A DNA stretch of 64,000 bases from a bacterium (lineage in GTDB: Bacteria > Omnitrophota > Gorgyraeia > Aquiviventales > Aquiviventaceae). This document shows positions 3,384-58,372 of the stretch, piece after piece; positions within the stretch are counted from its first letter, which is position 1, and every line of letters starts with the position of its first letter. Made by a program: the position numbers and the translations under genes. Below the pieces are notes generated by a model. That model saw only the letters and a list, made by a program, of their open reading frames with translations. It ran no database searches and was not told where the DNA came from. The DNA lies in contig DASWKB010000038.1 in the NCBI GenBank assembly GCA_036396895.1, forward strand, positions 13,145-77,144, written 5' to 3'.

Positions 3384-3472
3384 GTGCCAAATTCGGAATG
3401 CGGAATTCGGAATGCGGAATGACGTTCAAGCAGATCGATTCCGAATTCTCAATTCCCAATTCCGAATGTCAC
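3384..3472. repeat. Heptamer-array hairpin element, GGAATKC family, copy 1 (MITE/REP-like)
   Basis: gtgccaaattcggaatgcggaattcggaatgcggaatg ... cgattccgaattctcaattcccaattccgaatgtcac. Tandem GGAATKC heptamers sit on the left arm and their complement on the right. Related copies at 42540-42678 and 55914-55996. Confidence 0.7.
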
Positions 3473-3495
3473 GTCGGACCATGGTCTCAACGCAG

Positions 3496-4634: not shown

Positions 4635-4839
4635 CGAGAGGCTGGAAGCTGGAGGCTGGAGGCTAGAATGAGTACGTGATCATTCTAAATGCGCCCACGA
4701 TTGCATCTAAACATTGGGCGCATTTACCCTGAGCGAAGTCGAAGGGTACCCCCTCGACTCGCTTTGCTCGCTCGGGGTAAATGGAACCCATTCGAATGTT
4801 AACATGCAATGTGGGTTCCATTTAGCTCCCAGCCTCTCG
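4635..4839. repeat. Heptamer-array hairpin element, GCTGGAR family, copy 1
   Basis: Perfect 11-bp terminal inverted repeats (cgagaggctgg / ccagcctctcg) enclose ggctggaagctggaggctggaggctag. Inside are three internal palindromes (tagaatga..tcattcta; aaatgcgccca..tgggcgcattt; aaatggaaccca..tgggttccattt). Confidence 0.7.
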
Positions 4840-5465: not shown

Positions 5466-5896
5466 GGATCGAACCTCCTTGGATGGAACGGCGGCGTGGC
5501 CTGCCTATTTACTATAGCATGTCGTCCCGTCGCCGAACACCCCTCCCCTTGCGACCCCCTTGAGTTTGGCGACCAGTAACCGGTCCTGTGCCGCCACGGA
5601 ACTTCAGGCGTGTGCCGGCGCGGAAGAGCATGTTTGTGCATCTGTGCAGAACCCCGTTTGTGCCACGACGCCACCCTCAACAACGGAATGTTGGATAGAT
5701 GCACATCGGCACAAGCGTGATGGTCCATGATGGCCCAAACGGCTGGTTTCGTGATGGGACAATCCTGCTCTCCCGATACAGCACAAGACTGACTCCGCAC
5801 TCCCCACTCCACACTCCGCACTTGGCGCGACCGCTCGCGACGTGCCCCTCGCCCCATGCCCCCCGCCCCGACACGGCCCACGGTCCAGAGACGTCG

Positions 5897-6715
5897 CTAC
5901 CAGGTGATCCCGGAACCGGTCGGCGTCCGCCAGACTCCCAGCAGCACTGGGAGGGTTCCCCCCCAAGCCAGCCGGCCGAAGCGGTCCACGGCGATGGCCG
6001 CCAGCCGTTTCCGGCGAAGCTCCCGGAGCATGCTCCGGAGCACGACTGCCGGCGAGCGTCCATCGCGCGCGCGTTCGGCGATCCGTACGGCCAGCGCGGC
6101 TTCGACGATATCCTCTCCCAGCCCGGTGCAGGACACGGCCACGTTGTCGCCGGCCCAGTTTCCGACAGGCATGCCGCTGTCGCTCACCCGCCCCGCGGAC
6201 GCGCGCCGCTTGCCCCCGGTTGAGGTGGCTGCCGCCAGGCGGCCGGCGCGGTCGACGGCGACCGCCCCGACCGTGCCCGGCCCCTGAGGACGGATAGCCC
6301 GCCAGGCAACGGCGGGCCCCGCCGCCAAGCCCAGCCGGCGGGCGAACCTCGAAGCTTCCGGCCCAGCCAGGATCCTGTCGGAGCGTCCCAGCAGCGCTCG
6401 AGCCGCCCGAACGGGGTTCCGGACTCGCTCAATATTGAGGACACCCCCGAACCGGCTTGATTCGCCGTCCATGACCGAGGCGCTCATCCGGACCCGCCCG
6501 TCCCGCTGGGCGACCGACCCGGTCCCGGCATTGAACATCGGGTCGTCCTCCAGCCTGGACACGGCGTCCACCACGGCCGCAAGCGCCCCGGACCGCCGCA
6601 GGACGCGGTAGCCGTACTCGCAGATGCGCCTCAGGCGGCGCTCGGCCTCCCGCAGGCGCGCCGTGTCCGCCTGCGATCCGGCCCCCCCATGGATCACCAG
6701 CGCTGGGCGGCTCAT
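5897..6715 (-). CDS. Isoaspartyl peptidase / L-asparaginase (Ntn-hydrolase, plant-type asparaginase family)
   Basis: ALVIHGGAG N-terminal motif and a GTVGAVAVD nucleophile region. The ORF in the track (to 6778) has a Gly/Arg-rich N-terminal extension; the true start is probably the internal Met of MSRPALVIHGGAG. Confidence 0.7.
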   Translation of the reverse strand: MSRPALVIHGGAGSQADTARLREAERRLRRICEYGYRVLRRSGALAAVVDAVSRLEDDPMFNAGTGSVAQRDGRVRMSASVMDGESSRFGGVLNIERVRNPVRAARALLGRSDRILAGPEASRFARRLGLAAGPAVAWRAIRPQGPGTVGAVAVDRAGRLAAATSTGGKRRASAGRVSDSGMPVGNWAGDNVAVSCTGLGEDIVEAALAVRIAERARDGRSPAVVLRSMLRELRRKRLAAIAVDRFGRLAWGGTLPVLLGVWRTPTGSGITW

Positions 6716-16187: not shown

Positions 16188-16274
16188 AAGCTGGAGGTTG
16201 GAGGCTAGAAGCTCGAACATTCCAGCTTCCAGCATCCAGCTTCCAGCATCCAGCATCCAGCTTCCAGCTTCCGA
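16188..16274. repeat. Heptamer-array hairpin element, GCTGGAR family, copy 2 (includes a 7x CCAGCWT tandem array)
   Basis: gctggaggttggaggctagaagctcgaacattccagcttccagcatccagcttccagcatccagcatccagcttccagcttcc, between hypE and acs. Confidence 0.65.
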
Positions 16275-36398: not shown

Positions 36399-37055
36399 TC
36401 AGGAACGGACGAGCTCGCTGAGGTGCTTGGGATGGACGATCGTGGTCTTGCCGCGGACGGACCGGATCCACCCCTGCTGCTTGAAGCGGCTCAAGGTGCG
36501 GATGGCGGTCTCATGCGTCGTGCCCGCCAGCTCGGCCAGCTCGTGGCGGGTCAGCGGAATCGTCTCGCCGAATTTCTTCTGGAGCGTGAGCAAGACTTGC
36601 GCGATGCGCTTTTCTGCTGGCTCGTAGGCGGTGCAGCTCTTGTGCTCGACCTGGCGCAGGCGATCGCAGAACAGGCACAGCGTCTGGCTGGCGAATTCCC
36701 TGGACTTCGCCATGGCCTGGTGGAACATCTCAAGCGGAACCCGGACGAGCGTGCTGTCCACGGCGGCAATGGCATCGACGGGATAGGCCTTGCGGTCCAG
36801 CGTGGAGAGGCAACAGAAGGTCTCCCCGGGGGTCATGACGCACGTGGTGGATGCCCGGCCGTCGGCGAAGAAATTCATCAGGTGGACGCGTCCGGTACGC
36901 ACGACCCAGACCGCGTCGGCCTGCTCGTTCTGCCGGAAGACCGTTTCGCCCTTGGCGAACCCGCGCTCGCGGCTCACGGACGCGACCTGCTGCAACTCCG
37001 CGGGCGTCAAGCGCTTGAACGGATCCACGTTGGCCAGAAATTGCTGCATCATGCC
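36399..37055 (-). CDS. Crp/Fnr family transcriptional regulator (second paralog)
   Basis: From MMQQFLANVDPFKRLT…; has the HTH TIPLTRHELAELAGTTHETAIRTLS. Overlaps the end of ccsA. Confidence 0.8.
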   Translation of the reverse strand, partial: GMMQQFLANVDPFKRLTPAELQQVASVSRERGFAKGETVFRQNEQADAVWVVRTGRVHLMNFFADGRASTTCVMTPGETFCCLSTLDRKAYPVDAIAAVDSTLVRVPLEMFHQAMAKSREFASQTLCLFCDRLRQVEHKSCTAYEPAEKRIAQVLLTLQKKFGETIPLTRHELAELAGTTHETAIRTLSRFKQQGWIRSVRGKTTIVHPKHLSELVRS

Positions 37056-38773
37056 CCTGCTCGGACGCGGCGGGAAGCCATGACGGCGCCCAGGAGCGCG
37101 ATGAACGCCGCTTCTCCGATGGCGTACGCGATCAAGAGCGGCGGGATCGGCTTCGCGTTCCCGCCGGCATAGCTGTGCAGGCCGACCAGATAGAAGCTCA
37201 CACCATAATACGTCATCAAGAGCAGGAAGAATCCCGCGATCGTGGCCATCGCCACGCCGGCCGGCCGCAGCCAGCCGGCGAACCGGCCGTGCAGCACCGC
37301 GATGAACCACAAGAGCGTGATGAGCGCCCAGGTCTCCTTGGGATCCCAGCCCCAGTACCGGCCCCAGGACGCGTTCGCCCAGACCGCCCCGAGCATGATC
37401 CCGGCCGCCAGGAGCACCACGCCGACCTGAATCGTCCGGTAGAGCCACAGATCGAGCGCGGCGAGCGTGGCGTCCTCGCGGCGCGCGAGATACTTCGCGC
37501 CCGCAAAGTGCGCCAGGACCGCCGCCAGCGCCAGCGCGCCGTAGCTCGCCACGATCGTGAGGACGTGCACGGTAAGCCACAGGTTGCTGCGCAGCACGGC
37601 GACGATCGGGGTGATGCTGGAATCCAGCGGCAGATGGTCCGCCAGGATCAGGGTGATGACGGCGAGGATCGACGCCGCCAGCGCGAAGAACCGCACGCGG
37701 TAGCGCCACTCGAACACGAAGGCGAGGACGACCGCGACGAACGGCAGCCAGAGCATGGTCTCGTAGAAGTTCGCCACCGGAGGCCGCTCGGCAAGCACCA
37801 CCCGCGCGACCATGCCGCCCGCGTGGAGGGCCGCCGCCAACGTCATCGCGGCCATCCCGATCGCCGCCGCCCGCCGCGAGCCCGCCGCTGCCGTCGAGGT
37901 GCCGCCGGGTGTGACGCCCGGCGCACCCGCGCGCAGCCCGGCCGCCAGGGCCAGGATCGCCAGGACGTACGCGATGCGGGCGAGCAGGAACGGCTCGAGC
38001 CGGTTGTACCACACCTCGAGCGTGAGGCGCCACTCCGCGGGATACGCGGACGGCTGAAGGTCCCGGAGAGTCCGGCGAAGCGACCGCGCCGATTGCCCAA
38101 GCGCCTCCGCATCGCCGCCTCGCACGGCCTGGACGAAGGAGGCCCATGCGCCGCGGACGGTGTCCCGCGCCTCCGGCGGGTGGCCGGCCGGGTTCAGCAC
38201 GGGCAGCCAGGTCCGCTCAAGCCGCGACGCGGGCGGGACGAGATCGAGCTCCTGTTCAAAGAGGAGATTGAGCGTGACGAAGCGGTCGTACACGTCCATC
38301 GTTTCGTTCTCGGCGATGGTGAGCTTCTCATCGCGCTGCTGCTTCGCCACGATGGGCGGCAACAGCTGCATGAGCCGCCGCGTCGCGATGATCCCGTGGT
38401 AGGAGACGTGCGCGGACTCATCCGGCACCCCCAGCGCGTCGCGCAACGGGCCATACGGCACGGCGATGAGCGGCGCGTCCTGCCAGCGCTCCGGCTCCGC
38501 GATCAAGGAGAGCGTCGTCGCCACCGGGTCCTGCCCCCCCAGGGTCGGCGATCCCGTCAGATGCTTCAGGGTCTCCCAGGCGAAGCTGTCGAAGGGTTTG
38601 TGGCGCCCATGGTGCTGGATGACGATCCGCCGCGCGCCCGAGAGCGCCGCCTCCGGCCAGTCCCGCACGTCGGGCACGTCCCCGGCTGCCTGGACGGCGA
38701 TCCCCGCCGACATGACGAGTCCGCACGCGAGGCCCCAGACGCGCCAGGCGCGCCGCCGAGTGCCGATCATGCG
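37049..38773 (-). CDS. ccsA: Cytochrome c biogenesis protein CcsA/ResC (System II) with a large N-terminal periplasmic domain
   Basis: WWD domain WGRYWGWDPKETWAL and multiple TM helices. Confidence 0.8.
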   Translation of the reverse strand, partial: RMIGTRRRAWRVWGLACGLVMSAGIAVQAAGDVPDVRDWPEAALSGARRIVIQHHGRHKPFDSFAWETLKHLTGSPTLGGQDPVATTLSLIAEPERWQDAPLIAVPYGPLRDALGVPDESAHVSYHGIIATRRLMQLLPPIVAKQQRDEKLTIAENETMDVYDRFVTLNLLFEQELDLVPPASRLERTWLPVLNPAGHPPEARDTVRGAWASFVQAVRGGDAEALGQSARSLRRTLRDLQPSAYPAEWRLTLEVWYNRLEPFLLARIAYVLAILALAAGLRAGAPGVTPGGTSTAAAGSRRAAAIGMAAMTLAAALHAGGMVARVVLAERPPVANFYETMLWLPFVAVVLAFVFEWRYRVRFFALAASILAVITLILADHLPLDSSITPIVAVLRSNLWLTVHVLTIVASYGALALAAVLAHFAGAKYLARREDATLAALDLWLYRTIQVGVVLLAAGIMLGAVWANASWGRYWGWDPKETWALITLLWFIAVLHGRFAGWLRPAGVAMATIAGFFLLLMTYYGVSFYLVGLHSYAGGNAKPIPPLLIAYAIGEAAFIALLGAVMASRRVRAGA

Positions 38774-40512
38774 CCCCCTCCCCCCCAGCGCGCCGCCTTC
38801 GCCCGCCGCGCGATGAACATCCACACGACCCCGAGAATCACGATGAGAAATCCGGCGTACACCAGCGGCGTGCCGGGATCGTTCCGCACCGACAGCACCG
38901 TCGTTTCCACTGCGCCCGGGACGAAGCTCGACTGGAACAGGCTGTACCCGCGGTACTTGAGCGGGTTGTTCATGCTGATCTTGCGCATGAGGATAACGCC
39001 CCGCTCCAGGTCGCTCAGGTGGACGTCGCTTTCGAAGCCGGCGGCCATCTGCGTGCCGGGATAATCGATCTTCCTGAAGTCCAGCAGCTTCACGGTGAAC
39101 GGCAGCTCGCGCGTCTGCTGCTCGTAGCTCACCGTCACGGGGTGCCCGTTGAGATCCAGCTCGAGCGCGCCGCCGGATCCGACCCAGCCGTCGGCTTCAG
39201 CGTCGCTCGAGGACAGCGTCACGTGCAGCGCTTCCCCCCTGACCTCGTCGCTGCGGTTCGTCACGCGCTGCTCCAGGACGGCGCGCGGCGCGTACGCCTC
39301 CACGCGGAACACGTACTCGAGCCAAGGGTGCGTATACGTCTCGCCCGGCTCCAGATGCTCGACATGCCGCCGTTCGCCCGCCCGGCCGGTCAGCACCGCG
39401 CCCAGCCGCTCGGCGCCCGGATGCACGTAGAGCGCGATCGCATTCGGCGGCAGCGACGCCGAGAAGGGATGCGTGTAGCTCACCTGGGCCGGAATCTGAT
39501 GCTGCCAGCCGTGCATGGACGCGATGTCCGGATGGAAGGCGAAGAGCAGGTACGGGTCGGTCCCCTCCGGTCCGCTCAGCGTGAAGGCCACCGCGGGATT
39601 GTTCGGAGAGTCCGAGCGGGATTCGGGGCCATCCTCGCCGATCACGAAGTCAGGAAAGTAGTCGCGGAACGTGATCGTGTACGGAGTCCCCTCGACCGGG
39701 ATGGGCGTGTGCATCGTCTCCGGCACAGGAATGTCGCGCGCACCCAGGTCCGGCAGCGCCACGGCCACGACCCCCCGCAGGTGGCGGGTGGCCGGAACCG
39801 GCTCGATGAGGCGCGCGGCGTCGGCCTCCGTTTCCGGCTCGAGGAAGATGACGTGCGCGTCGCCCCAGCCGATCCCGAACCGCTCCGGGTCGCGCGCGAA
39901 GAGCCACAGCGCGTCCTGCTGGAGCCCGTGTTCCACCCTGACCCGCACGGCCGGGTTCGCCTCAGGCCCGCCATCGGTGACCTCGTCCTGCACCACCGCG
40001 TCCGGATAATACCGGTTCACCGTGAGCTCCAGGCGGCGGCCCTCCAGCTCGGCCGAGAACGACGCGTCGGGCTCGTGCACCCAGGCCTGCGTCTCGAAGA
40101 AGGTCGGGAACGCCCGGTGCCCGCCGGGATTCGGCTGATGCAGCACGAGGACCTTGCCCGGAAGCAGCAGCGTCCGGTTGGCCTCCCCTTCGCGGATCAC
40201 GAGCTGGCCCTCGATGCCGAAGCGGCCGCCGATGATGCCGCCGAGGAGAATGCAGATGATCCCGAGGTGCGCCAGGAGGAACGGCACGTGCTTGCGCTTC
40301 CACGGCACGCGACGCAGCGCCGACACCACCAGGTTCACCGCGAGAAATCCGAGGATCCCCTGGAACCACCACGCCTGGTAGATGAAGCGCTGGACGGAGG
40401 CCGTGCCGTAACGCGTCTCATAGATCGTGCCCCACGCCAGCACGATCGCGATCGCGAGGATCAGCGCGACCGCCATCTGGAGTGAGCCCATCCAACGAAG
40501 GAGTCGAGTCAT
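38767..40512 (-). CDS. ccsB: Cytochrome c biogenesis protein CcsB/ResB (System II)
   Basis: 581 aa with N-terminal TM helices and the ResB family N-terminus (…WGTIYETRYGTASVQRFIYQAWWF…). Confidence 0.8.
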   Translation of the reverse strand: MTRLLRWMGSLQMAVALILAIAIVLAWGTIYETRYGTASVQRFIYQAWWFQGILGFLAVNLVVSALRRVPWKRKHVPFLLAHLGIICILLGGIIGGRFGIEGQLVIREGEANRTLLLPGKVLVLHQPNPGGHRAFPTFFETQAWVHEPDASFSAELEGRRLELTVNRYYPDAVVQDEVTDGGPEANPAVRVRVEHGLQQDALWLFARDPERFGIGWGDAHVIFLEPETEADAARLIEPVPATRHLRGVVAVALPDLGARDIPVPETMHTPIPVEGTPYTITFRDYFPDFVIGEDGPESRSDSPNNPAVAFTLSGPEGTDPYLLFAFHPDIASMHGWQHQIPAQVSYTHPFSASLPPNAIALYVHPGAERLGAVLTGRAGERRHVEHLEPGETYTHPWLEYVFRVEAYAPRAVLEQRVTNRSDEVRGEALHVTLSSSDAEADGWVGSGGALELDLNGHPVTVSYEQQTRELPFTVKLLDFRKIDYPGTQMAAGFESDVHLSDLERGVILMRKISMNNPLKYRGYSLFQSSFVPGAVETTVLSVRNDPGTPLVYAGFLIVILGVVWMFIARRAKAARWGGGGA

Positions 40513-40686
40513 CAGCGGTGTGTCCGTGCCGTTACAACGGGAGGGCGACTGCGTCCCTGCCGACCATGCGCCTTATCATACTACACCGATGCGTCGGAAG
40601 GAAAGACGGGAAAAAACCTGGCCATGGCGACGAAGGCGAGCCCGCCGGCGCAGAGCCCCGCCGCGGCCATCGCGAGCGCGCGCCGC

Positions 40687-42603
40687 CTACACCTCGTCAT
40701 CCGGCTCGTTCTCGCGGTGGGCCCGATCCGACTCCGAGGGCCGCCCGCTGATCCACGTCCACTTCATCGGGTACTCGTCCGGGTCGAACATCACGAAGTA
40801 GAAGTGCCACACGGCGATCGCCAGGCACGCGAGGACCGCCTCGTAGTAGTGAATCGCGTTCACCACGTCGAAGCACCACTTCGGGAACACGCGCAGCGTC
40901 CAGTCCTGCCAGGTCATCAGCGTGCCCGTCAGCACCATCACGATGGAGCCCCACACGAGCGCCCAGTACTCCATCTTCTCGACATAGCTGTAGCGGGCGA
41001 AGACCGGCCGCGCCGCGCGCCGTCCCAGGTAGAACGCCAGCATGCGGAACGGATCGATGAGATCGCGGCGCCTCGGCCACAGCGCCGCCAGCTCCTTCCT
41101 GCCGCGCGTCGTGGCGGCCATGAACCACAGGTGGTACACCGACAGCAGCACGAACAGCGCCGCCGCGACCCGGTGCCCCATGCTCCGCCAATCGAACCGG
41201 CCGACGAAGGGGCTCGACCACCAGGCCTGCGGGAACGACAGCGCGAAGCCCGTGTAGGCCAGCGTCAGGAACGCGAGAATCAACAGGACGTGCTGGAGGC
41301 GCTCGCCGCGCTGCATCCGCATGCCGGTGGCCTGAGCCCGGTGGCGGCGGTAATGCTCGGCGAGCTTCCGCCTGAAGTCCAGGAAGTTGTGCGCGAGCAT
41401 CCCGCCGATCACCATCACGATCAGCGCCAGGTAGAACCTGCGGACCCACCCGACGACGCGGTGCTCCAGGCCCGGCCGGGTGCCTGAGTGGATCTGCCCT
41501 TTGGCGACCTGGGCGCTGACGCCGGGGTGGCACTTCCCGCAGGTCTGCGGCAGGTTCGAGGGATGCACCGAGGAGCGGGGGTCGTTCGAGGGGAGGATAT
41601 CGTGGGCCCCGTGGCAGGAGGCGCAGTTCGCCGCCGTCGGCATGCCCATCTGCAGCGCAAGCCCGTGGAAGCTCGACATGTAGGTGTCGACGGTGTGCGA
41701 CGGGAGCCCGTACTTGGTGATGATGCGCTCGGCTGCGTGGCACTGCCCGCACGTCTCGGGAATGTGCGAGGGGAAGACCGACGATGCGGCCAGCTTCACG
41801 GACGCGATGGTGTGCTCGCCGTGGCAGTCGGTGCAGACCGGCGCCTCGCGCTTCCCCGCCTGGACGGCGCCGCCGTGGACGCTGCGCAGGTACGTCTGCT
41901 GGATGTTCTCATGGCATTTCCCGCAGGTGGCCGGGATGCGCTGCCAGTAGAGCTTCGACCCCGGATTGGTCGCGCGGTGCAGATCGTGCGAGCCGTGGCA
42001 GTCCGTGCACACGGCCGCCGCCGCCACGCCCCGCTCGATGAGCGCCCGGCCGTGCACGCTCTCATCGTAGGAGGCCACCGGCTCGGGCTGCGCCAGCCGG
42101 AACCGGGCCATCTCGGCGGTCTTCCCGTGGCATTGCGCGCAGGTCTCGGGAATGTTGGCCCGGTGCACGGGCGAGGCGGGGTTGCGCGAGCTCAGCAGCT
42201 CATGGGCGTTGCCGTGGCAGCTGCGGCAGGTCGCCGCTTCGGTGACGCCGGCTTTCAGCGCCAGGCCGTGATCGCTGTTCAGGTAGACTTCGGTCTCGAT
42301 CCGGTGGCAGGAGGCGCAGCTCACGGGCGCAAGCGGCACGCCGTGCGGGATCTCCGTCACGTCCCGGTGGCAGCTCGTGCAGCGGTTGCGGCCGTGGATC
42401 GAGGCTCCGAACAGCTCGGGGTCGATGAACGGGTCCGCGGACGGGTCGCCGTGGCACGCCAGGCACGTGTCATTGTCCGGAGCCTCCTGCGCGCGCGCCG
42501 GCGCTGCGAATGCCAACACCAATCCCAGCGCCAACCATCGTGCCAAATTCGGAATTCGGAATGCGGAATGGCTCGGCGTACCGTTCGATGTGGAATGTGT
42601 CAT
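40687..42603 (-). CDS. Undecaheme c-type cytochrome fused to a C-terminal diheme cytochrome b (HydC/FdnI-like) membrane domain; same architecture as Geobacter CbcL
   Basis: 11 CxxCH motifs follow a signal peptide. The C-terminal 4-5 TM helices carry conserved His (MLAHNFLDF, SVYHLWF, NAIHYYEAVL, AVWHFYF). The start codon and N-region lie inside the GGAATKC element. Confidence 0.7.
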   Translation of the reverse strand: MTHSTSNGTPSHSAFRIPNLARWLALGLVLAFAAPARAQEAPDNDTCLACHGDPSADPFIDPELFGASIHGRNRCTSCHRDVTEIPHGVPLAPVSCASCHRIETEVYLNSDHGLALKAGVTEAATCRSCHGNAHELLSSRNPASPVHRANIPETCAQCHGKTAEMARFRLAQPEPVASYDESVHGRALIERGVAAAAVCTDCHGSHDLHRATNPGSKLYWQRIPATCGKCHENIQQTYLRSVHGGAVQAGKREAPVCTDCHGEHTIASVKLAASSVFPSHIPETCGQCHAAERIITKYGLPSHTVDTYMSSFHGLALQMGMPTAANCASCHGAHDILPSNDPRSSVHPSNLPQTCGKCHPGVSAQVAKGQIHSGTRPGLEHRVVGWVRRFYLALIVMVIGGMLAHNFLDFRRKLAEHYRRHRAQATGMRMQRGERLQHVLLILAFLTLAYTGFALSFPQAWWSSPFVGRFDWRSMGHRVAAALFVLLSVYHLWFMAATTRGRKELAALWPRRRDLIDPFRMLAFYLGRRAARPVFARYSYVEKMEYWALVWGSIVMVLTGTLMTWQDWTLRVFPKWCFDVVNAIHYYEAVLACLAIAVWHFYFVMFDPDEYPMKWTWISGRPSESDRAHRENEPDDEV

Positions 42604-42678
42604 GGACCGGCCGAGCGGGCATGACACGTTACACATCCAACATGACACAATCGGGATTCCGCATTCCGCATTTGGCAC
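42540..42678. repeat. Heptamer-array hairpin element, GGAATKC family, copy 2 (longest; near-perfect terminal inverted repeats)
   Basis: gtgccaaattcggaattcggaatgcggaatg …(unique core with tgtcatg/catgaca and ggctcggc/gccgagc sub-palindromes)… gggattccgcattccgcatttggcac. Confidence 0.75.
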
Positions 42679-42686
42679 TGATTTCG

Positions 42687-44200
<1,514 letters not shown>

Positions 44201-44201
<1 letters not shown>

Positions 44202-45485
44202 CACGAGCGCTCCCCCCGCGAGCCGTCCGGGCGGTCCAACTCCCTGATCCGCAGCACGAGGCCGAGGATCAAGAGCCCCAGGATCACGAGCGTCACCCAA
44301 AAGCCCTTGCGGCGGAAGTGGAACTCCTCCACCGCCTGCTCCCCCTGCCCCGCGGCCTCATCCGCATGGGCAAGCCCCTCCTCGACGATGGGGTCCATCT
44401 TGTCCATCGAAAAGGCGTGCACATACGCCCGCGACTGCGTCAGTTTGGCGCCCGCCTCGTGGAGCTCGAATTCCGCGTCCGCCACGTCCATGCCCAGGCC
44501 GTCGGCCTGTTCGATCAGGGCATTCGCGTCCTGCACGCGGGTCTTGAGCCGCTCGATTGCCCCGCGCATCGCTTGGGCGGTGCGGAACCCCGCGGACTCG
44601 GGCTCGTGGCAGCTGACGCAGAGCGCCTCGGGGCCGGTCCCGAGCATCTCGTCCGTCGGCCTGGCGATCAAATGGTTGCCGTGGCACACCTCGCACTCCG
44701 GCAGCCCCAACGCCTCGTGCGCCGCTTTGTGCGGGCTGTTGACGAACAGGTCGCGCGAGAGCGCGTGGCACTGGGCGCACACGTTGCCGACGGCGAGCGT
44801 GCCCGGGCGGGCGGCCTCGTGTGATCCGTGGCAGCTGGCGCAATGGGGCGCCGCGCGGTCGCCCCGGAACAACAGCGCCTGGCCGTGCACGCTCCGCGAA
44901 TATTCCCAGTGCTGATTGACCGGCAGCCCGTGCCGGTCCATGACGGACGCGTCCGCATGGCACGTCGCGCACGTCCCGGGGATGTTGGTCGCATAGACCG
45001 GCGAGGAGGGGTTGCGCGCCTGCAGGATCCCGTGGACGCCGTGACAGCTCGTGCAGACGGGAACGTCGGCGTCGTGCGCGGCGAAGCGTTTGCCGTGCTG
45101 GCTCGTCAGGTACTTCGCGTACTGGTCGGTCGGCAGGTTCGGATTGAACCGCCGCATGTACTCCGGATTCGCGTGGCACCGGGCGCAGAGCGCCGGGATC
45201 TCCTCGCGCCGGATATGCCCGAGGAACCCCCGCGCGGGATCCATGGCCGCCTCCGGATCCATGGAGGCGGGATCTCCCCCGTGGCAGTCGGCGCACGTGA
45301 GCCCGCGCGCGGCATGCACATCGTCGGGAAACAGCGCGGCCGGCCCCCGGGTGCCGCCCTCCATGGCCTGATGGCATTCCACGCACCCGCTGCCCTTGGT
45401 CTGTGCCTGCGCCGCCGGCGCCCATGCCGGGATCGCGAGCGCCGCGACGACGCCGGCTCGCAGCACCACCGCCGAGCGCGTCATG
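44201..45485 (-). CDS. Nonaheme c-type cytochrome with signal peptide and C-terminal TM anchor
   Basis: From MTRSAVVLRAGVVAALAIPAWAPAAQA; 9 CxxCH; C-terminal WVTLVILGLLILGLVL helix. Its ATGA overlap with the cytochrome b stop suggests translational coupling. Confidence 0.75.
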
Positions 45486-46560
45486 GCGCGTGCCCGATCC
45501 AGAGCGCGTAGACCGTCATGCCCACCACGTAGCTCATCCCGACCCACCCCAGCAGCGCCATCAGCCAATGCGCCCGTCCGCGGCGGGCCGGACGGTCCAG
45601 CCACGGCACCAGCACCAGCGCGGCGCCCGCAATCCCGATGCCGCCGATGGCGAGCAGCTCTCCTTCCAAGCCGAAGACATGGCTCGGCACCAGCTTCAAG
45701 GTCTGAAACATCCAGAGGAAGTACCATTCCGGCTCGATGCCGGCCGGCGTCGGCGCGAAGGGATCCGCCTGCTCGCCCAGCGTGGCCGGCAGGTACACCG
45801 CGAGGGCCAGCACCGCCCCGAGCATCACGCACCATGCGACCAGATCCCGGAGCAGGAAGTCCGGCACGAACGGCATGCTGCGCTCGTCCCGCACAGAGAG
45901 CGGCCGGCTCATCCCCTGCATCTGAATCATGGCCAGATGCGCGCCCAGCAGGCCCAGGAGCGCGATCGGCAGGATGGCGATATGCAGCCAATAGAACCGC
46001 CGGATGGTCGCCGCGCCCACTTCCGGACCTCCGCGCAGCATGGTCCCGATGACCGGGCCGATCCCGGGCACGGCCGCGGAGATTTCCGTGCCGACTTTCG
46101 TCGCGAAGTACGCGAGCGTATTCCACGGCAGGAGGTACCCGGTGAATCCGAAGCCCATCAGGAGGAAAAACAGGAGCGCCCCGCTGACCCAGGTCAGTTC
46201 CCGGGGCGGGCGGTACGCCTTCAGGAAAAACGTGCTCGCCAGATGCACGAAGGCGGAGAGGATCGCCACGTTCGCCGCCCAGGCGTGCACCGAGCGCACG
46301 AGCCAGCCGAACTCCACCTTGGTCATGATGAAGCGGACGGACTCGAACGCGTGCTCGGCGGAGGGCTGATAGTACAGCAGCAGCAGGATGCCGCTCAGAA
46401 TCTGGATGACGATCAGGACAAGCGTCATGCCGCCCCAGTAATACCAGATCGTGTGCCGGTGGACGGGCACCGTCTTGTGGGACGCGAACTCGCCGAGGCG
46501 CTGCAGGGGATAGCGGCTGTGGAAGAAGCCGCGCAGCCGCTCAGCCGCGCGCGCGAACAT
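45481..46560 (-). CDS. petB: Cytochrome b (bc1/b6f family, b6 + subunit IV fused length)
   Basis: …WGGMTLVLIVIQILSGILLLLYY…, the heme-ligand His regions (SVHAWAANVAILSAFVHL…) and a PEW-like region (LPW). Confidence 0.85.
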   Translation of the reverse strand: MFARAAERLRGFFHSRYPLQRLGEFASHKTVPVHRHTIWYYWGGMTLVLIVIQILSGILLLLYYQPSAEHAFESVRFIMTKVEFGWLVRSVHAWAANVAILSAFVHLASTFFLKAYRPPRELTWVSGALLFFLLMGFGFTGYLLPWNTLAYFATKVGTEISAAVPGIGPVIGTMLRGGPEVGAATIRRFYWLHIAILPIALLGLLGAHLAMIQMQGMSRPLSVRDERSMPFVPDFLLRDLVAWCVMLGAVLALAVYLPATLGEQADPFAPTPAGIEPEWYFLWMFQTLKLVPSHVFGLEGELLAIGGIGIAGAALVLVPWLDRPARRGRAHWLMALLGWVGMSYVVGMTVYALWIGHAP

Positions 46561-46811
46561 GGAGCCTCACGGGCAAGCCCGTCGCACTTGTCATCCCACG
46601 CTCCGCGTGAGGCGACATCCCGCCCCCGGTCTTGGCCGGAGCAGGCTCGGCGGGATGGAGCCTCACGGGCATGCCGGTTGCCCACATGAACACCGCCCGT
46701 GGGGCGGAATCCCGCGCGAGCCCACGGCCGCTGGCCGTGGTGCGAGTCGCGGGATCACCGGGTCCTTTCGCGCGCGTCATGATCCGCACCGGCAGCGCGC
46801 CCGCGGCTCCG
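46560..46811. repeat. Structured spacer between Rieske and cytochrome b genes, with direct and inverted copies of GGAGCCTCACG and several short stem-loops
   Basis: Two direct repeats of about 26 nt (atggagcctcacgggcaagcc…/atggagcctcacgggcatgcc…), an inverted copy (cgcgtgaggcg), and hairpins cgggcaagcccg and ccacgggc…gcccgtgg. Confidence 0.45.
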
Positions 46812-47294
46812 TCATGAGGATTTCGACACGACAATGTCATCGCCGCGGATGTTGACCTGAAACGCCTCGAGCGGCCGCGGAGGAGGCCCCGAGATCACCT
46901 GGCCGTTCAGGTCGAACTTGCCGTTGTGGCAGGCGCACCAGATGACGCTGGCGTGATCGTCGTACTGCACGGTGCAGTTCAGGTGCGTGCACACGGCGGA
47001 AAACGCCTTCAGGTCTCCGTGCGGCGTATGGACGAGCAGCGCGGGCTGGGACCCGAACCGGAAGATCTTGGCCTGGTTGGCGGCCAGCTCGCCGACTCTC
47101 CCCGCCACCACGTTCGACACCGAAGCTTCCCGGCCCATGGGAGGATAGAGATACCGCACGATCGGGTAGAGAGTCGACCCGATCAGGGCGAGGACGCCGC
47201 CTTTCAGGAGCCCCCCGAGGAACGCGCGCCGGCTGAACCCCCGGCGCGGACACATAATCCCGTTTGACGGTTCCATCTCGTTGCTCCGACGCAC
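46812..47294 (-). CDS. petA: Rieske [2Fe-2S] iron-sulfur protein with twin-arginine signal
   Basis: Tat motif SRRAFLGG; Rieske boxes CTHLNC and CACHNG. Confidence 0.8.
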   Translation of the reverse strand: MRRSNEMEPSNGIMCPRRGFSRRAFLGGLLKGGVLALIGSTLYPIVRYLYPPMGREASVSNVVAGRVGELAANQAKIFRFGSQPALLVHTPHGDLKAFSAVCTHLNCTVQYDDHASVIWCACHNGKFDLNGQVISGPPPRPLEAFQVNIRGDDIVVSKSS

Positions 47295-47394
47295 AAGAGG
47301 AGGCCGCCCGCCGGCTCCCGCGCATCCGCGCGTCAGTCAGGTCGCCTGGCGGGCGGCCTCCGCAGTGCCCGTGACGCCGTGCCGGAAGCCCGGA

Positions 47395-49431
47395 TCAGAA
47401 CTTCTTCGACACCTCCAACCACAATGCGTTCGCCCGGTAGTTGCCCGCCTCCGCCAAAGACTTGGCCAGATAATGATAATATCCGTACTTCGCGCCGAGT
47501 GTCACGTCCTCCTTCGGCGACCAGTTCACGCCGAGCTCCAGGTCGAGCCGCTCGTTGTCGATGCCGTACGGCAGCGCCGTCGGCGACACGTCATTGAAGT
47601 TCTCCGCGTCGGCATAGAGCAGCGAGGACGTCAGCGACACCGCGGACGTCGGCGTGTAATCGACGGTCAAGAGCCAGGTGGTGACATCGCTGCTGAACGC
47701 CGCGATCGGCGGGTTCGGACCGTGGCGGGCCGGCGTGACCACGTCCGCATCTTGCCGGGACACGGACCCCAGCACCAGGAGCCCATTGAGCGGCTGGAGC
47801 GCCACATCGTAGGTATAGATGTGCGACAACGTCTGCGTCTCGACGCTGTTCATGCCCTGCACCGCGGTCGCGTAGTCATCGTCCCGCAGCTGGTAGCGGA
47901 ACGAGGTGCGCAGCCAGCGCCGTGGCTTGAGCGTCACGCGGGTCGTGAACTCATCCGTGGCCTTGTTGGCATAGTCGATGAACGCGGAGCTGAACGACGT
48001 CTCGAATTGGTCGTCGTAGTCATTGTTGCTCCGTTTGTGGCGCACCTGGCTCGTCACGTCCAGGAACCGCCACGGCGAGCTCCGGGCGCCCAGCGTCCAG
48101 CCGCCGCGGCGGACATCGGTCACCGTGTCCCGGTAGAAGGAGTTCGCGCCCGTGATCCCGTCGGATTGATCTTCGCGAAGCCGGATGCGCGCCTGCTCCA
48201 GCTCGAGGTCCGTGTACACCGACGTACGGGGGATTCCGGTGAACTTGAGCGAGACCGCTTCGCCCCAGCGGTGCTCGTTCGAATCGCTGATGTTGTTCTC
48301 GATCCCGTCGATCACGCCGTCGGGCGACGCCCCGGAGGCCGGCGAGCCGTCTTCAGGATATACGGAGACGCTCTCGCGTTTCGCGAGCTCCGCCTTGAGC
48401 CGGGTGGTCAGCGTGAGCGAGTCCGCGACGTCCACCGCCAGGTTGCCGACCCAGGCGTGCGTATCCACATCGCTGTCGGCGCGCGCGTTCCGCTTCTGCT
48501 CCGAGAAGCTGAAGAAATTCGTCGGCACCCCCGCCGCGTTCAATTCATACAGGTCTTCGTATTCGCGGGCCGTCAGGTGCGCGAAGTGATACGCGCTGGC
48601 GAAGAACACCTTTTCTTCCAGGAACGCCCGCTCCGCGCCGAAGAGCGAGGTCAGCACCGCCGCCTCCGGGCGCTGGTCGTGCCGCCGCATCAGCTTGTCG
48701 GCGGCGGTGGCGGTGGTCGAGATGTCCCGCTCGAGCCGCACGGATTCGATGTCGACGAACTCCGCCTCGTGCTTGGTGGTCAGGTTCCACTCCGCCACCT
48801 CGTCGGCGATCTCGAAGCCCACGACGTCGACGATCTCATCCACTTCCTGCCAAGTGGGCGCGATATTCCGGGTCACCGCCTCCTCCGCTTCGCTCCAGGT
48901 GAGGCGGGATTTCGTGCCGTCCTTGTACTCGCGTTCATAGAACAGCTTGATGTCCGGGAAATCCTCGAGCGTGAGGCCCGCCTCCAGCTCGATCTTGCCG
49001 ATGTCCATCTCCAGGCGCTTGTCCGTTTCGCTCCCCGAGAGCGTCGTGAACGGCGGATACACGCCGCCCGTGCCGTCGTAGTATTTCCGGAATTCCTGGA
49101 AATTCAGGTGGACGTACCCGAGGCCGCCCCAGTTGTACTCGAGCGCCGTCCCGAGATCGTTATCGTCGATGATGGCGTGCCCGGTTGCGCGGAATTCGGT
49201 GTCGCCCTCCCCTTCGACCTTGAGGGAGAAATCCTCGATGCCGCCGCCGTAGCCGTCCTTGATCCAGTGGTGCGCCCGGAACTTCTCGTCATCCCCCTGC
49301 ACGTCGATATAGCGCACGGGCAGCACCGTGATCGAGGACTCCATCTCGGCGGCCGCCGCGGTCCGGGCGCTCCCCAGGAGGCCGCCCACGGCCATGACCA
49401 GCGCCCCCACCGCACCGATCGTCGCTCTCAT
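47395..49431 (-). CDS. Outer-membrane beta-barrel protein (large, about 650 aa mature; C-terminal Phe)
   Basis: Signal peptide MRATIGAVGALVMAVGGLLGSARTAAAA, alternating amphipathic beta-strand pattern with aromatic girdle residues throughout, and a terminal …LWLEVSKKF. Confidence 0.55.
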   Translation of the reverse strand: MRATIGAVGALVMAVGGLLGSARTAAAAEMESSITVLPVRYIDVQGDDEKFRAHHWIKDGYGGGIEDFSLKVEGEGDTEFRATGHAIIDDNDLGTALEYNWGGLGYVHLNFQEFRKYYDGTGGVYPPFTTLSGSETDKRLEMDIGKIELEAGLTLEDFPDIKLFYEREYKDGTKSRLTWSEAEEAVTRNIAPTWQEVDEIVDVVGFEIADEVAEWNLTTKHEAEFVDIESVRLERDISTTATAADKLMRRHDQRPEAAVLTSLFGAERAFLEEKVFFASAYHFAHLTAREYEDLYELNAAGVPTNFFSFSEQKRNARADSDVDTHAWVGNLAVDVADSLTLTTRLKAELAKRESVSVYPEDGSPASGASPDGVIDGIENNISDSNEHRWGEAVSLKFTGIPRTSVYTDLELEQARIRLREDQSDGITGANSFYRDTVTDVRRGGWTLGARSSPWRFLDVTSQVRHKRSNNDYDDQFETSFSSAFIDYANKATDEFTTRVTLKPRRWLRTSFRYQLRDDDYATAVQGMNSVETQTLSHIYTYDVALQPLNGLLVLGSVSRQDADVVTPARHGPNPPIAAFSSDVTTWLLTVDYTPTSAVSLTSSLLYADAENFNDVSPTALPYGIDNERLDLELGVNWSPKEDVTLGAKYGYYHYLAKSLAEAGNYRANALWLEVSKKF

Positions 49432-55655: not shown

Positions 55656-55903
55656 CATGCGCCTGGCGTCCCGGGCGGCGCGGGAACCACGCCGGAGACC
55701 GGCAGCGCGTCGAACGGCCACGCCCCGCCGTCGGTCGTGAAGACGCAGTCCACGCGGAAGCAGGCGGGATCCTTATCGAGGCAGTTGACCACTCTCCACT
55801 TCCCTGGCGCGTGCTGCAGCAGGATCGCCCAGACGCTGCGCTGCGTCAGCGCGCACGTGCACGGCAGGTATTTCACCTCGCCCCGGTCCGCCTCACTCAT
55901 CAC
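55655..55903 (-). CDS. Small Cys-containing hypothetical protein (82 aa) translationally coupled to the radical SAM/SPASM gene
   Basis: VKYLPCTCALTQRSVWAILLQHAPGKWRVVNCLDKDPACFRVDCVF; its stop overlaps the rSAM start; lies immediately downstream of GGAATKC element copy 3. Confidence 0.35.
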   Translation of the reverse strand: MMSEADRGEVKYLPCTCALTQRSVWAILLQHAPGKWRVVNCLDKDPACFRVDCVFTTDGGAWPFDALPVSGVVPAPPGTPGA

Positions 55904-55913
55904 TGTGCCTCCC

Positions 55914-55996
55914 GTGCCAAATGTGGAATTCGGAATTGGGAATTCGGAATGTGCTCCCGGTTTTCAATTCCGCATTCCGCATTCCGCATTTGGCAC
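55914..55996. repeat. Heptamer-array hairpin element, GGAATKC family, copy 3
   Basis: gtgccaaatgtggaattcggaattgggaattcggaatg tgctcccggtttt caattccgcattccgcattccgcatttggcac. Confidence 0.7.
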
Positions 55997-56045: not shown

Positions 56046-57788
56046 TTAGCCGGCGCACTCGCCCTTCCCCATCCCTCCCAAGGAGAAGTCCTCCGTGTGC
56101 CCCCAGTCGCGGAACGCCTCAGGGTCTTCCGGGTTGGGTTCGAACACGGCGAACGGGGCCAGCGCGCGCTCGATCGGCGCCGTGCCGGCGCGTTCCACGC
56201 AGGCCCGGAACGATTCCCCGTCGGTCCGCTCGCGCCGGTACCAGGCCAGCAGCGCCTCGACGGCCTGCGGGACCCGCCGCGCCGGCAGCCGCGCCACCGT
56301 CTGCCCGAATGACGCTTCGCCGTCCCCGCATCCGCCGCCGACCAGCACCTGATAGAACGGCACCGGGCGGCCCGCCACGTTCCGGCTCGACCCGAACATG
56401 CCGATGTCGGCGATATGATGCTGGCCGCAGGAATTCGGGCAGCCGGAGAGCTTGATCCGGAGCGCTTGGAGGTCGTCGGTCTTGTACTCCGGAGCGTCGA
56501 GCGTGTCCGCCAGCGCCGTCGCCAGGCCGCGCGAGGCGGTAATGCCGATCTGGCAGGTGTCCGCGCCCGGGCAGGACGTGATGTCCTGAATCCGCTCCGC
56601 GTCGGCGCGCCCGAGCCCGAGCGGGACGAGCACCGCGTACAGCGACGGCAGATCCTCTTCCCTAACCCAGGGCAGGCACACGTCCTGCCACGGCGTCGTG
56701 ACGACCCGCCCGCCGGAGAACCGGCGCGCCGCGTCCGCGAGACCCCGCAGCTGGGGCACCGACAGATCACCCAGGAGCAGCCGCACGGTGACCATCGCGA
56801 CGCCCGGCTGGCGCTGGGGCTGCGCGTTCGTCTTGACCCACCGGACATACCCCGCGGCGCCCTCCGCCCGGATGGCGCGGCCGCCGCCGCGCCCGTTCGT
56901 TGGGATCGCCGGCTCCGGCAGCAACGGGAACCGCTCCGGGCGCGCGTGCAGCTCGTCGCGCCGAGCGAACACGCGGCGGCGGAACTCCTCGATGCCGATC
57001 GAGCTCAGCAGGAACTTCATCCTGGCGCGCTGGCGGTTCTTTCGCTCACCGTCGCGGTTGAACACCGCAAGGACGGCCTCCATCGTCGGCAGGAGCTCCG
57101 CCAGCGGCGTCCACGGCTCCAGGAGATCCGCCGGGCGCGGGAGCGCCCCGAGCCCCCCGCCGACGTACAGCCGGAATCCGGGCCGGCCCTGATCCAGCGC
57201 CGCGATCACCCCGATGTCATGGATCGCCGCCATCGCCCGGTCGTGCCGGCAGCCGGAGAAGCTCATCTTGAACTTGCGGGGAAGCTCCTGCGTGTCCGGG
57301 TGCCTGAGGAAATACGTGGTCGCGGCCAGCACGTACGGCGCCACGTCGAAGACCTCATCGGGGCAGAGCCCGGTGAACGGGCACGCGGTGATGTTCCTGA
57401 CGCTGTTGCCGCACGCCTCCCGCGTGGTGAGGCCGACATCCGCCAGCTCCGCCAGCAGGTCCGGCACCCGCGGCAGGGGCACCTCGTAGAGCTGGAAGTC
57501 CTGCCGGGTCGTCACGTGCGCCCTGCCGGTCGCGTAGGCCTCCGCGAGCGCCGCGACCCGCTCGCACTGCCCGGCGTTGAGCCAGCCGCCTGGCACTTTG
57601 ATGCGGACCATCTGGCGGTCGCGCAGCGCGCGGATGCCGTAGATCCCGAGCTGCAGCCGGCACTTCTTGAAGTCATCCGCGGAGAGCGACCCGTCGAGGT
57701 ACTGGCGGATGCGGCCCCGGAACTCGTCCAGTTCCGCCGGGTTCCCCGGCAGCGTCACGATGGGTGTCGTCGGCTGTGTCTGCTGCAT
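56046..57788 (-). CDS. Ferredoxin-dependent sulfite/nitrite reductase (siroheme + 4Fe-4S; NirA/Sir family)
   Basis: Two NiR/SiR repeats and the cluster motif SGCPNSCGQHH…; 580 aa. Confidence 0.85.
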   Translation of the reverse strand: MQQTQPTTPIVTLPGNPAELDEFRGRIRQYLDGSLSADDFKKCRLQLGIYGIRALRDRQMVRIKVPGGWLNAGQCERVAALAEAYATGRAHVTTRQDFQLYEVPLPRVPDLLAELADVGLTTREACGNSVRNITACPFTGLCPDEVFDVAPYVLAATTYFLRHPDTQELPRKFKMSFSGCRHDRAMAAIHDIGVIAALDQGRPGFRLYVGGGLGALPRPADLLEPWTPLAELLPTMEAVLAVFNRDGERKNRQRARMKFLLSSIGIEEFRRRVFARRDELHARPERFPLLPEPAIPTNGRGGGRAIRAEGAAGYVRWVKTNAQPQRQPGVAMVTVRLLLGDLSVPQLRGLADAARRFSGGRVVTTPWQDVCLPWVREEDLPSLYAVLVPLGLGRADAERIQDITSCPGADTCQIGITASRGLATALADTLDAPEYKTDDLQALRIKLSGCPNSCGQHHIADIGMFGSSRNVAGRPVPFYQVLVGGGCGDGEASFGQTVARLPARRVPQAVEALLAWYRRERTDGESFRACVERAGTAPIERALAPFAVFEPNPEDPEAFRDWGHTEDFSLGGMGKGECAG

Positions 57789-57851: not shown

Positions 57852-58103
57852 TCAGATGCCCATGCCGTCTTTCTGCCACGTCGTCATCTCCCGCCGGTGC
57901 GCGAACAGGAACCGGTCGATCGCCTCGAGCACCGCGCGGCTCCGCGGCGCCGTCTCCTGGCGCTCCCAGCGGCTGAGCGTCGAATAGCTCACGCCCAGCT
58001 GATGGGCGCAGGCCTCCTCGGACCAGCCCATCTGCCTGCGGAGCCGCTTCAGCGCCTCCAGCCGTTCCCTGACTGTCTGGATTCCGGATACACTCATGTG
58101 CAA
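57852..58103 (-). CDS. XRE-family helix-turn-helix transcriptional regulator (small)
   Basis: …QMGWSEEACAHQLGVSYSTLSRWERQETAP… (HTH_XRE). Confidence 0.55.
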   Translation of the reverse strand: MHMSVSGIQTVRERLEALKRLRRQMGWSEEACAHQLGVSYSTLSRWERQETAPRSRAVLEAIDRFLFAHRREMTTWQKDGMGI

Positions 58104-58198: not shown

Positions 58199-58372
58199 GG
58201 GGATGACCATGAGAGCATGAGAAGGTAGAAGATGGAGGGTGGAGGGTGGAAGAGAGAAGATGGAAGGTGGAGGGTAGAAGGTAGAAGGTAGAAGATAGAA
58301 GGTAGAGTTATATTGTCATTTGTACTTTCTATCTTCTACCTTCTATCTTCTACCTTCTCACGGTCATCCCCA
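58199..58372. repeat. Octamer-array hairpin element, GGTAGAAG/GGTGGAGG family
   Basis: Terminal inverted repeats ggggatgaccatgaga / tctcacggtcatcccc enclose (ggtagaag/ggtggagg)n, an AT-rich loop (ttatattgtcatttgtac), then (cttctacc/cttctatc)n. Confidence 0.7.

Follow-up and report, generated by a model that had tools for sequence, protein, structure and literature searches.

The window analyzed here is a 64,000-nucleotide stretch of the Omnitrophota contig DASWKB010000038.1, with positions counted from its first letter, and the subject of the analysis is a heptamer-built hairpin located at the 5' end of a gene for a CbcL-like respiratory cytochrome. The window is ~69% GC and nearly all of its genes lie on the minus strand. 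The cytochrome gene (40687–42546, minus strand) codes for 11 CxxCH motifs, a count made in the open reading frame (ORF) that agrees with the 11-heme cytochrome of the initial annotation, and for a PF01292 b-type cytochrome domain at residues 430–606 of the protein. Judged from its sequence, the product has the architecture of a CbcL-type bc cytochrome, in which a periplasmic multiheme c-type domain is combined with a diheme b-type membrane domain. The ORF is full length and aligns over 93–96% of its length to its orthologs. Upstream of it lies a NapC/NrfH-like multiheme cytochrome gene (42687–44204, minus strand), whose TAA stop codon occupies 42689–42687, and directly downstream are the ResB and CcsA genes. 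These genes belong to a conserved string made up of the cytochrome b, multiheme cytochrome, NapC/NrfH-like, CbcL-like, ResB, and CcsA genes, in which there are several 4-nt overlaps.

Anatomy of the hairpin at the cytochrome junction

The sequence GGAATKCGGAAT, with at most one mismatch allowed, occurs 13 times in the window against an expectation of 0.49, and the occurrences fall in three clusters at 3384–3474, 42540–42678, and 55914–55996, referred to as copies 1, 2, and 3. The three copies share the formula RTGCCAAAT-(KCGGAAT)n-loop-(ATTCCGM)n-ATTTGGCAC and all of them fold as RNA hairpins, with z-scores of −3.1 to −5.2. Copy 2 is the one at the cytochrome junction. It is 139 nt long (42540–42678, no strand assigned) and has a GC content of 55%, compared with 69% for the genome. 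The arm that is 5' on the mRNA (42648–42678, minus strand) consists of GTGCCAAAT followed by GCGGAAT GCGGAAT and then degenerate sequence, and the 3' arm (42540–42570, minus strand) consists of (ATTCCGM)3 followed by ATTTGGCAC, which together read ...SHSAFRIPNLA(R) in the cytochrome frame. The inverted arms are 31 nt each and 84% complementary. Between them is an expanded center of 77 nt (42571–42647), which contains an inner 22-nt inverted repeat (42583–42604 and 42620–42641) and to which no similar sequence was found in any fetched locus. The RNA of copy 2 folds into one long interrupted hairpin with an energy of −65 kcal/mol and a z-score of −5.2. The initial annotation was correct about the location and description of this element, as seen from both the enrichment of the heptamer and the inverted arms.

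Copy 2 has the RTGCCAAAT terminus of the family, at least two xGGAATx heptamers (three and two in its arms), and an inverted partner arm. Its loop is much larger than the 10–18 nt found in 10 of 13 inverted pairs of the family, with 77 nt between the 31-nt arms and 86 nt between the parsed heptamer arms, and copy 2 is therefore an atypical, expanded family member. The element starts at 42678, 8 nt past the upstream TAA stop, and fills 139 of the 147 nt that separate this stop from the point where the hydrophobic core of the cytochrome signal peptide begins. An identical junction, including copy 2, is present on a separately assembled contig of the same population (L040; one mismatch in 7917 nt), indicating that copy 2 is not an assembly artifact. 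An Rfam scan of the whole window at gathering score matched no family.

Orthologous junctions without the element

Six orthologous junctions were compared, and the DNA was read for the presence of the element in five of them, the P0003 contig being left out. The element is absent from all five. The spacers at the six junctions are 27 nt (L036), 88 nt (L035), 57, 25, and 1 nt, and one junction is a 4-nt overlap. L036 and L035, the syntenic operons closest in identity, have a Shine-Dalgarno (SD)-like sequence and a start codon of their own, which in L036 takes the form GGGGGA-N5-ATG. Their n-regions, such as MLISGRTTAVCPR, are unrelated to that of the window and are followed by an h-region, and the mature end ...EAP..DNDTCLACHGDPS is conserved. 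The best independent homologs of the window protein, found in Omnitrophica-labelled and other PVC-group metagenome-assembled genomes (MAGs), are at most 74% identical to it (the nearest orthologs ~73%), and their N-terminal signal peptides could not be aligned. The comparison of orthologs lacking the element, proposed with the initial annotation as a way to recover the ancestral N-terminus, was therefore informative in part: it established the absence of the element and the unrelated n-regions of L036 and L035, but the signal peptides themselves gave no alignment.

Because the two junctions read closely hold their own SD sequence, start codon, and n-region at these places, the positions of the ribosome-binding site (RBS) and the n-region in the window are now occupied by element sequence, and outside the element no RBS-like or n-region-like sequence is left. 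The initial annotation had proposed that insertion of the element reshaped the 5' end of the cytochrome gene together with its RBS and probably its promoter. As regards the 5' end, the RBS, start, and n-region positions are indeed element sequence, and insertion may have been the event that placed it there. The proposal of a reshaped promoter has no support, as the gene lies inside a co-directional run with 4-nt overlaps and no sigma-70-like promoter was found, nor any intrinsic terminator, in a scan of 42300–42900.

Candidate start codons of the cytochrome gene

The cytochrome frame is open through the whole element and back to 43194, in the −1 register relative to the upstream gene. A −1 frameshift fusion of the two cytochrome ORFs was considered and rejected, since no X XXY YYZ slippery site was found by reading before the stop and the orthologs are separate genes. 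The host-encoded part of the signal peptide (42490–42537, minus strand) comprises the h-region WLALGLVLAFAA and the c-region PARA; cleavage is predicted in front of QEAPDNDTCLACH, and the hydrophobic core opens with a Trp codon at 42537, 3 nt past the end of the element. In-frame start codons occur inside the element (GTG42678, GTG42648, ATG42636, GTG42627, ATG42603, and TTG42546) and past it (TTG42534, TTG42522, GTG42519, and TTG42516). The ATG at 42538, just past the element, is out of frame and its reading frame ends after 22 codons.

Three public annotations of the cytochrome differ by 29 residues. JGI and ENA call a protein of 638 residues from the ATG at 42601–42603 (minus strand), which lies in the expanded center of copy 2 and in the cytochrome frame as initially annotated, where it pairs within the inner stem and lacks an SD sequence. 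The NCBI annotation (HEX9780531.1, 609 residues) starts from the TTG at 42514–42516 (minus strand) with MAFAAPARAQEA..., a form from which most of the hydrophobic core is removed and which has no usable signal peptide. The TTG at 42544–42546 (minus strand) is located in the conserved terminus ATTTGGCAC and gives MAR-WLALGLVLAFAA-PARA|QE, a putative 19-residue Sec-type signal peptide, so that the terminus does offer the in-frame TTG before the signal-peptide core that had been pointed out previously. The first three bases of the element make up the GTG at 42676–42678 (minus strand), 8 nt past the upstream stop; this GTG is in frame, would add a 63-residue leader, and is a conceivable re-initiation site at the base of the stem. 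The first in-frame start outside the element is the TTG at 42532–42534 (minus strand), which yields MALGLVLAFAAPARA with no charged n-region, and starts beyond it leave a truncated h-region (MAFAAPARA).

By inspection, the features of a Sec signal peptide appear complete from TTG42546 (MAR / WLALGLVLAFAA / PARA|Q), whereas starts at 42534 or beyond lack either the n-region or the h-region, and every start that would provide a complete Sec signal peptide is therefore in the element. Among 107 homologs the n-region has a median length of 7 residues, with 22 or more residues in 8% and 5 or fewer in 29%. The corresponding lengths in the window are 3 residues from TTG42546, 22 residues from ATG42603 (about the 92nd percentile of the homologs), and 0 residues from TTG42534. 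There is no SD sequence of at least 4 nt near any in-frame cytochrome start within 90 nt of 42534. In the window, where gene starts from the codon-usage caller are approximate and those cited here were corrected by hand, 41 of 52 genes have an SD core of 4 nt or more near a candidate start, and 29 have one of 5 nt or more.

Copy 2 thus sits in the spacer of one operon, and the CbcL-like gene probably initiates on a codon that the element supplies, because the h-region follows the element closely and the arms of the family are nearly free of stop codons (4 in 3542 six-frame codons). The signal-peptide features favor TTG42546 as the first candidate, ATG42603 as the second, and the downstream starts as the third. 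Taken together, the candidates inside the element are quite likely to include the start in use. For TTG42546 by itself the case is tentative and close to balanced; ATG42603 is possible with clearly lower confidence, and use of another in-element start such as GTG42678 is hardly to be expected.

Several observations weigh against this interpretation. TTG is the SD-supported start in only 1 of the 29 window genes that have an SD sequence of at least 5 nt. The codon-usage suffix score peaks at TTG42534, just outside the element, and the caller prefers this codon because GC at third codon positions (GC3) is 0.53 in the element-encoded codons 1–19 of the 638-residue call compared with 0.94 in the gene body; by the same measure the region is without sign of long-term coding selection. 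Opening the RNA from −15 to +12 costs 20–23 kcal/mol at every candidate start, in or out of the element, compared with 10.5–21 kcal/mol (median ~13) at ten SD-bearing starts elsewhere in the window, and expression of the cytochrome may be poor given such buried starts. The similarity of the opening energies means that accessibility does not discriminate among the candidates. As for the insertion, no close relative lacking the element was found in the collections searched, the sole near-identical contig (L040) carries it, and precise excision of the element restores, by reading, no obvious ancestral start.

The alternative that takes up most of these points is that the true start lies just past the element, at TTG42534, TTG42522, GTG42519, or TTG42516, and that the element is a structured untranslated spacer that supplies no codon. 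The codon-usage score, the GC3 of the element, and the NCBI form beginning at 42516 agree with this explanation, as does the fact that ~5% of the homologs are called with essentially no n-region. These starts are, however, just as deprived of an SD sequence and equally buried at 20–23 kcal/mol, and their products would have either no positive n-region or a shortened h-region. This is a difficulty for a multiheme c-type domain, which must be exported through the Sec pathway for periplasmic heme attachment, the more so with ResB and CcsA genes directly downstream. We therefore regard a downstream start as unlikely.

The element probably arrived at the junction by insertion or replacement, copy 2 taking the positions of the RBS, the start codon, and the charged n-region that are held in the orthologous operons. 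At TTG42546 the terminus ATT-TGG-CAC-G would be read as TTG-GCA-CG(A), giving fMet-Ala-Arg. Initiation would then take place inside strongly folded RNA and would need the help of ribosomes that terminate 8 nt upstream or of RNA processing, and the net effect is likely to be that expression of the downstream cytochrome is lowered or uncoupled, as with repetitive extragenic palindromic (REP) hairpins within operons.

Family members outside the window

Pattern scans with the terminus and heptamers identified family members in 30 metagenome stretches and in 4 contigs from species-representative genomes, namely a Deltaproteobacteria MAG, a second delta MAG, and one Planctomycetales MAG; the contigs that carry them span 41–70% GC. 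Seventeen of the metagenome stretches are from one sample and lie on contigs of window-like GC; several of these contigs have another heptamer repeat in common with the window, and in one of them a 144-nt repeat of the window recurs. Fifty-four arms were parsed from the window and the fetched loci, and 38 of them have exactly four heptamers. The arms form 13 inverted pairs, mostly with 10–18-nt loops, and 29 arms stand alone. In paired units, complementarity at the K position is limited to 9 of 39 cases, compared with a shuffle mean of 13.6, and the stems therefore carry a regular mismatch. The termini GTGCC/ATGCC...GGCAC are present in all copies, and inspection of 19 oriented copies found no flanking target-site duplication. 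The element is best explained as a dispersed, non-coding palindromic repeat, the arm of which has a conserved 9-nt RTGCCAAAT terminus with tandem xGGAATx heptamers after it.

About 23 of 28 elements in high-GC loci are placed between co-directional genes, where they often fill the spacer, and 7 are no more than 12 nt from the upstream stop. Examples are the atpG|atpD and atpD|atpC junctions and positions 5' of pheA-like and proS-like genes, named from N-terminal peptides. The terminus pattern had no match in viral contigs. One (GAATGCG)4 hairpin without the GTGCCAAAT terminus is present on a contig classed as viral (L039, 2456–2546), indicating that terminus-less variants exist. A plasmid search gave no match to the element, neither this search nor the viral scans yielded an autonomous insertion sequence sharing the termini, no RAYT gene was seen among those genes of the window that were scanned, and a literature search for the exact repeat sequences returned chance primer matches only. 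On L024 (364–700), two family arms ~270 nt apart surround unique sequence and a (CTTTCCA)n array, so that arms can also bracket larger inserts in a foldback- or miniature inverted-repeat transposable element (MITE)-like manner.

Other members of the family are read as coding or start sequence. An RluD-like pseudouridine synthase (PF00849) contains a GGAATGC hairpin in frame at L003 6982–7066 and L034 3878–3962. Its ORF has 24 residues in place of 4 in Escherichia coli RluD, exactly at the position of the element, and the loop that precedes the RAGIVHRLDKDTSG motif is ~20 residues longer as a result. The reading frame of this element is the same as at the cytochrome, as shown by ...IPHSAFRIPHLAR-AGIVHRLD and ...SHSAFRIPNLAR-WLALG, and the shared peptide is ...HSAFRIPHLAR in the RluD-like protein and ...HSAFRIPNLAR in the cytochrome. 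The L003 ORF has a second in-frame hairpin built of a different heptamer, (AGGGYTC)n ... (GAGCCCC)n, at 6632–6706, which accounts for 25 extra residues between two positions that lie side by side in E. coli RluD. At L023 2094–2186 the ATG of an AroE-like ORF overlaps the element terminus (ATTTGCC-ATG-ACG) and has no SD sequence; the Shikimate_dh_N domain begins at residue 7, and the sole other candidate start is a GTG at codon 6. The RluD-like and AroE-like cases make it plausible that serving as coding or start sequence is a property of the family.

These data also bear on whether anything was inserted at the cytochrome junction, as the heptamer arrays could have grown in situ by 7-nt polymerase slippage or as host regulatory sites. 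Heptamer simple sequence repeats are over-represented in many bacteria, with slippage proposed as the cause (PMC4692102, PMC4679880), and growth in situ would suit the occurrence in the window of heptamer arrays of different units, including the inverted pair at 58220–58358, the presence of solo arms alongside pairs, and the low complementarity of the K position (9 of 39), by which the stem is not kept perfect. It is less easily reconciled with a single 9-nt terminus and a single unit across contigs of different phyla and 41–70% GC, with the strong preference for four-unit arms, with the in-frame element in the conserved RluD loop, or with the absence of the element from the five orthologous loci read, and we consider it quite unlikely.

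A more far-reaching interpretation, which we put forward as a decidedly long shot, is that the elements are a cross-phylum, foldback-type mobile family (GTGCCAAAT-(KCGGAAT)n) with stop-free arms and that copy 2 is a working instance, its terminus (TTG-GCA-CG) serving as a portable fMet-Ala-Arg n-region and its hairpin making translation of the cytochrome subject to gating by ribosomes finishing the NapC/NrfH-like gene. The stop-free arms would allow copies to survive inside genes and to be co-opted as coding or initiation sequence, and the hairpin would place the upstream stop and the start of the downstream gene together at the foot of a single stem. That the element instead crippled translation, as a recent insertion neither purged nor compensated that left the CbcL-like ORF intact but poorly expressed or silent, would fit the missing SD sequence, the location of all candidate starts in or beside a −65 kcal/mol hairpin, and the lack of host codon bias in the element-encoded codons, but is very unlikely given a full-length ORF that retains all 11 CxxCH motifs, the b-type domain, and the 93–96% alignment to orthologs, an identical junction in the separately assembled contig of the same population, and essential cytochrome c maturation genes next in the gene string.

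Comparison with known repeat systems

The heptamer repeats described for Xanthomonas (GGGAATC; Rehm et al. 2015, PMC4692102) number ~185 per genome, and most arrays have four units. They are 89–93% intergenic, mostly between co-directional ORFs and near the end of the upstream ORF, and 70–75 sites are convergent inverted pairs able to form stem-loops (PMC4692102). The present family resembles them in the GGAAT core (GGGAATC and CGGAATK), in the preference for four units, and in placement and pairing. On the strength of this likeness in core, units, and placement, the Xanthomonas heptamer inverted repeats would appear to be the closest described relatives. In contrast to the Xanthomonas unit (GGGANTN), the unit KCGGAAT lacks the first G and thus neither contains a G3 tract nor has the potential to form a G-quadruplex. 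The present arms end in RTGCCAAAT, although the Xanthomonas set was compared by its repeat cores only, and the present family extends over several phyla. PMC4692102 does not describe any overlap with start codons or signal peptides.

Like REP, BIME, and REPIN sequences, the present elements are short, high-copy palindromes in operon spacers that form RNA hairpins just past stop codons (PMC3116915, PMC3733652). Their arms, unlike REPs, are tandem heptamer arrays that are not themselves palindromic. REPs are normally lineage-specific, and they can stabilize upstream mRNA and lower downstream expression, as in the case of the malE-malF REP. According to PMC3733652, REP/REPIN sequences are palindromes of 20–40 nt, one end of which bears a GTAG or CGTC tag. 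The present family has no such tag, its termini being GTGCC/ATGCC...GGCAC, and membership in REP/REPIN was rejected on this sequence feature. Membership in MITEs was also rejected, as inverted termini are present but none of the 19 oriented copies is flanked by a direct duplication.

The Correia/NEMIS MITEs of Neisseria are co-transcribed inverted repeats whose long hairpins are cut by RNase III and which remodel downstream 5' regions. Correia elements also have a TA target duplication, 26-nt terminal inverted repeats, and promoter-like motifs, whereas none of these was found in the present family. The Rickettsia palindromic elements (RPEs) associated with Ogata et al. (2000) are reportedly 100–150 nt long, restricted to Rickettsia, free of tandem heptamers, and tolerated in frame in genes. 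The RluD-like proteins of L003 and L034 are similar in that an in-frame element adds residues to a conserved ORF; copy 2 is not a case of this kind, although an RPE-like addition of peptide sequence at the cytochrome N-terminus is plausible by analogy. Most members of the present family differ from RPEs in being intergenic and in being built of tandem heptamers.

The TAACTGA heptamer repeats of Beggiatoaceae and cyanobacteria frequently stop a few nucleotides short of a start codon, in many cases with no recognizable RBS (PMC4679880), and share with the present family the occurrence of intergenic heptamer arrays in distant lineages. They differ in being direct repeats of another unit, with one inverted example, for which a regulator-binding role rather than a hairpin has been proposed (PMC4679880). 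As for the cytochrome itself, CbcL of Geobacter sulfurreducens has a periplasmic multiheme c-type domain fused to a membrane b-type domain and contains nine hemes (PMC9129911). The window protein has the same architecture with 11 CxxCH motifs compared with nine, and its function is a prediction from the sequence.

Against this background, a heptamer hairpin that fills the initiation region of a cytochrome is a tidy instance of a type of event already known, with a consequence for one gene that is neat and not surprising. The junction documents such a hairpin in place of an initiation region within a conserved electron-transfer operon, and, taken with the cases of RluD and AroE, it suggests that heptamer inverted repeats, a widespread and little-studied class, can become part of coding sequences. 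The main practical value lies in the correction of annotation and in a testable example of a co-opted repeat. The NCBI 609-residue call strips the export signal from a respiratory cytochrome, and start prediction that takes account of repeats would correct annotations of this type. Should a start within the element be confirmed, the junction would offer a clear case from nature in which the n-region of a signal peptide comes from a repeat.

Other copies, neighboring genes, and further repeats in the window

Copy 1 (3384–3474) is located between the gene for an AI-2E transporter (stop at 3496) and a hemD-hemE fusion gene (ATG at 3322), which has a GAGG SD sequence of its own 61 nt beyond the element. 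Copy 3 (55914–55996) is located between a nitrite/sulfite reductase gene (stop at 56046) and an ORF of 82 residues. The SD sequence and starts of this ORF (55898–55913, minus strand) comprise a GGGAGG at 55913–55908, which adjoins the element, and the codons GTG 55903 and ATG 55900; as the element ends at 55914, the earlier observation that copy 3 lies ~10 bp from the downstream start holds.

The neighborhood of the cytochrome gene at 37049–49410 contains an MtrB/PioB-like porin gene (47395–49410), a cytochrome b gene (45481–46560), three multiheme cytochrome genes, and then ResB and CcsA, a gene content that suggests an extracellular or periplasmic electron-transfer module. PFOR, HypF, and nitrite/sulfite reductase genes are found elsewhere in the window.

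A second, unrelated heptamer foldback consists of (AGAAGGT) ×12.4 at 58220–58306 facing (TACCTTC) ×5.1 at 58323–58358, and occupies the spacer (58220–58358) of genes ending at 58103 and 58400. Further intergenic heptamer arrays are present at 4641–4668, 5792–5822, 5844–5869, and 16220–16272, with the units GCTGGAA, ACTCCGC, GCCCCAC, and TTCCAGC (×7.6), and arrays of the GCTGGAA/GCTGGAG type recur in many contigs of the metagenome sample Ga0214471. The genome of the window seems to be generally rich in heptamer repeats. A 144-nt stretch at 4681–4824 is 98.6% identical to positions 7990–8133 of L012, a contig that is otherwise unrelated. It contains two separate palindromes, AAATGCGCCCA...TGGGCGCATTT and AAATGGAACCCA...TGGGTTCCATTT, had no Rfam match at gathering score, and could represent a further repeat family or a small RNA.

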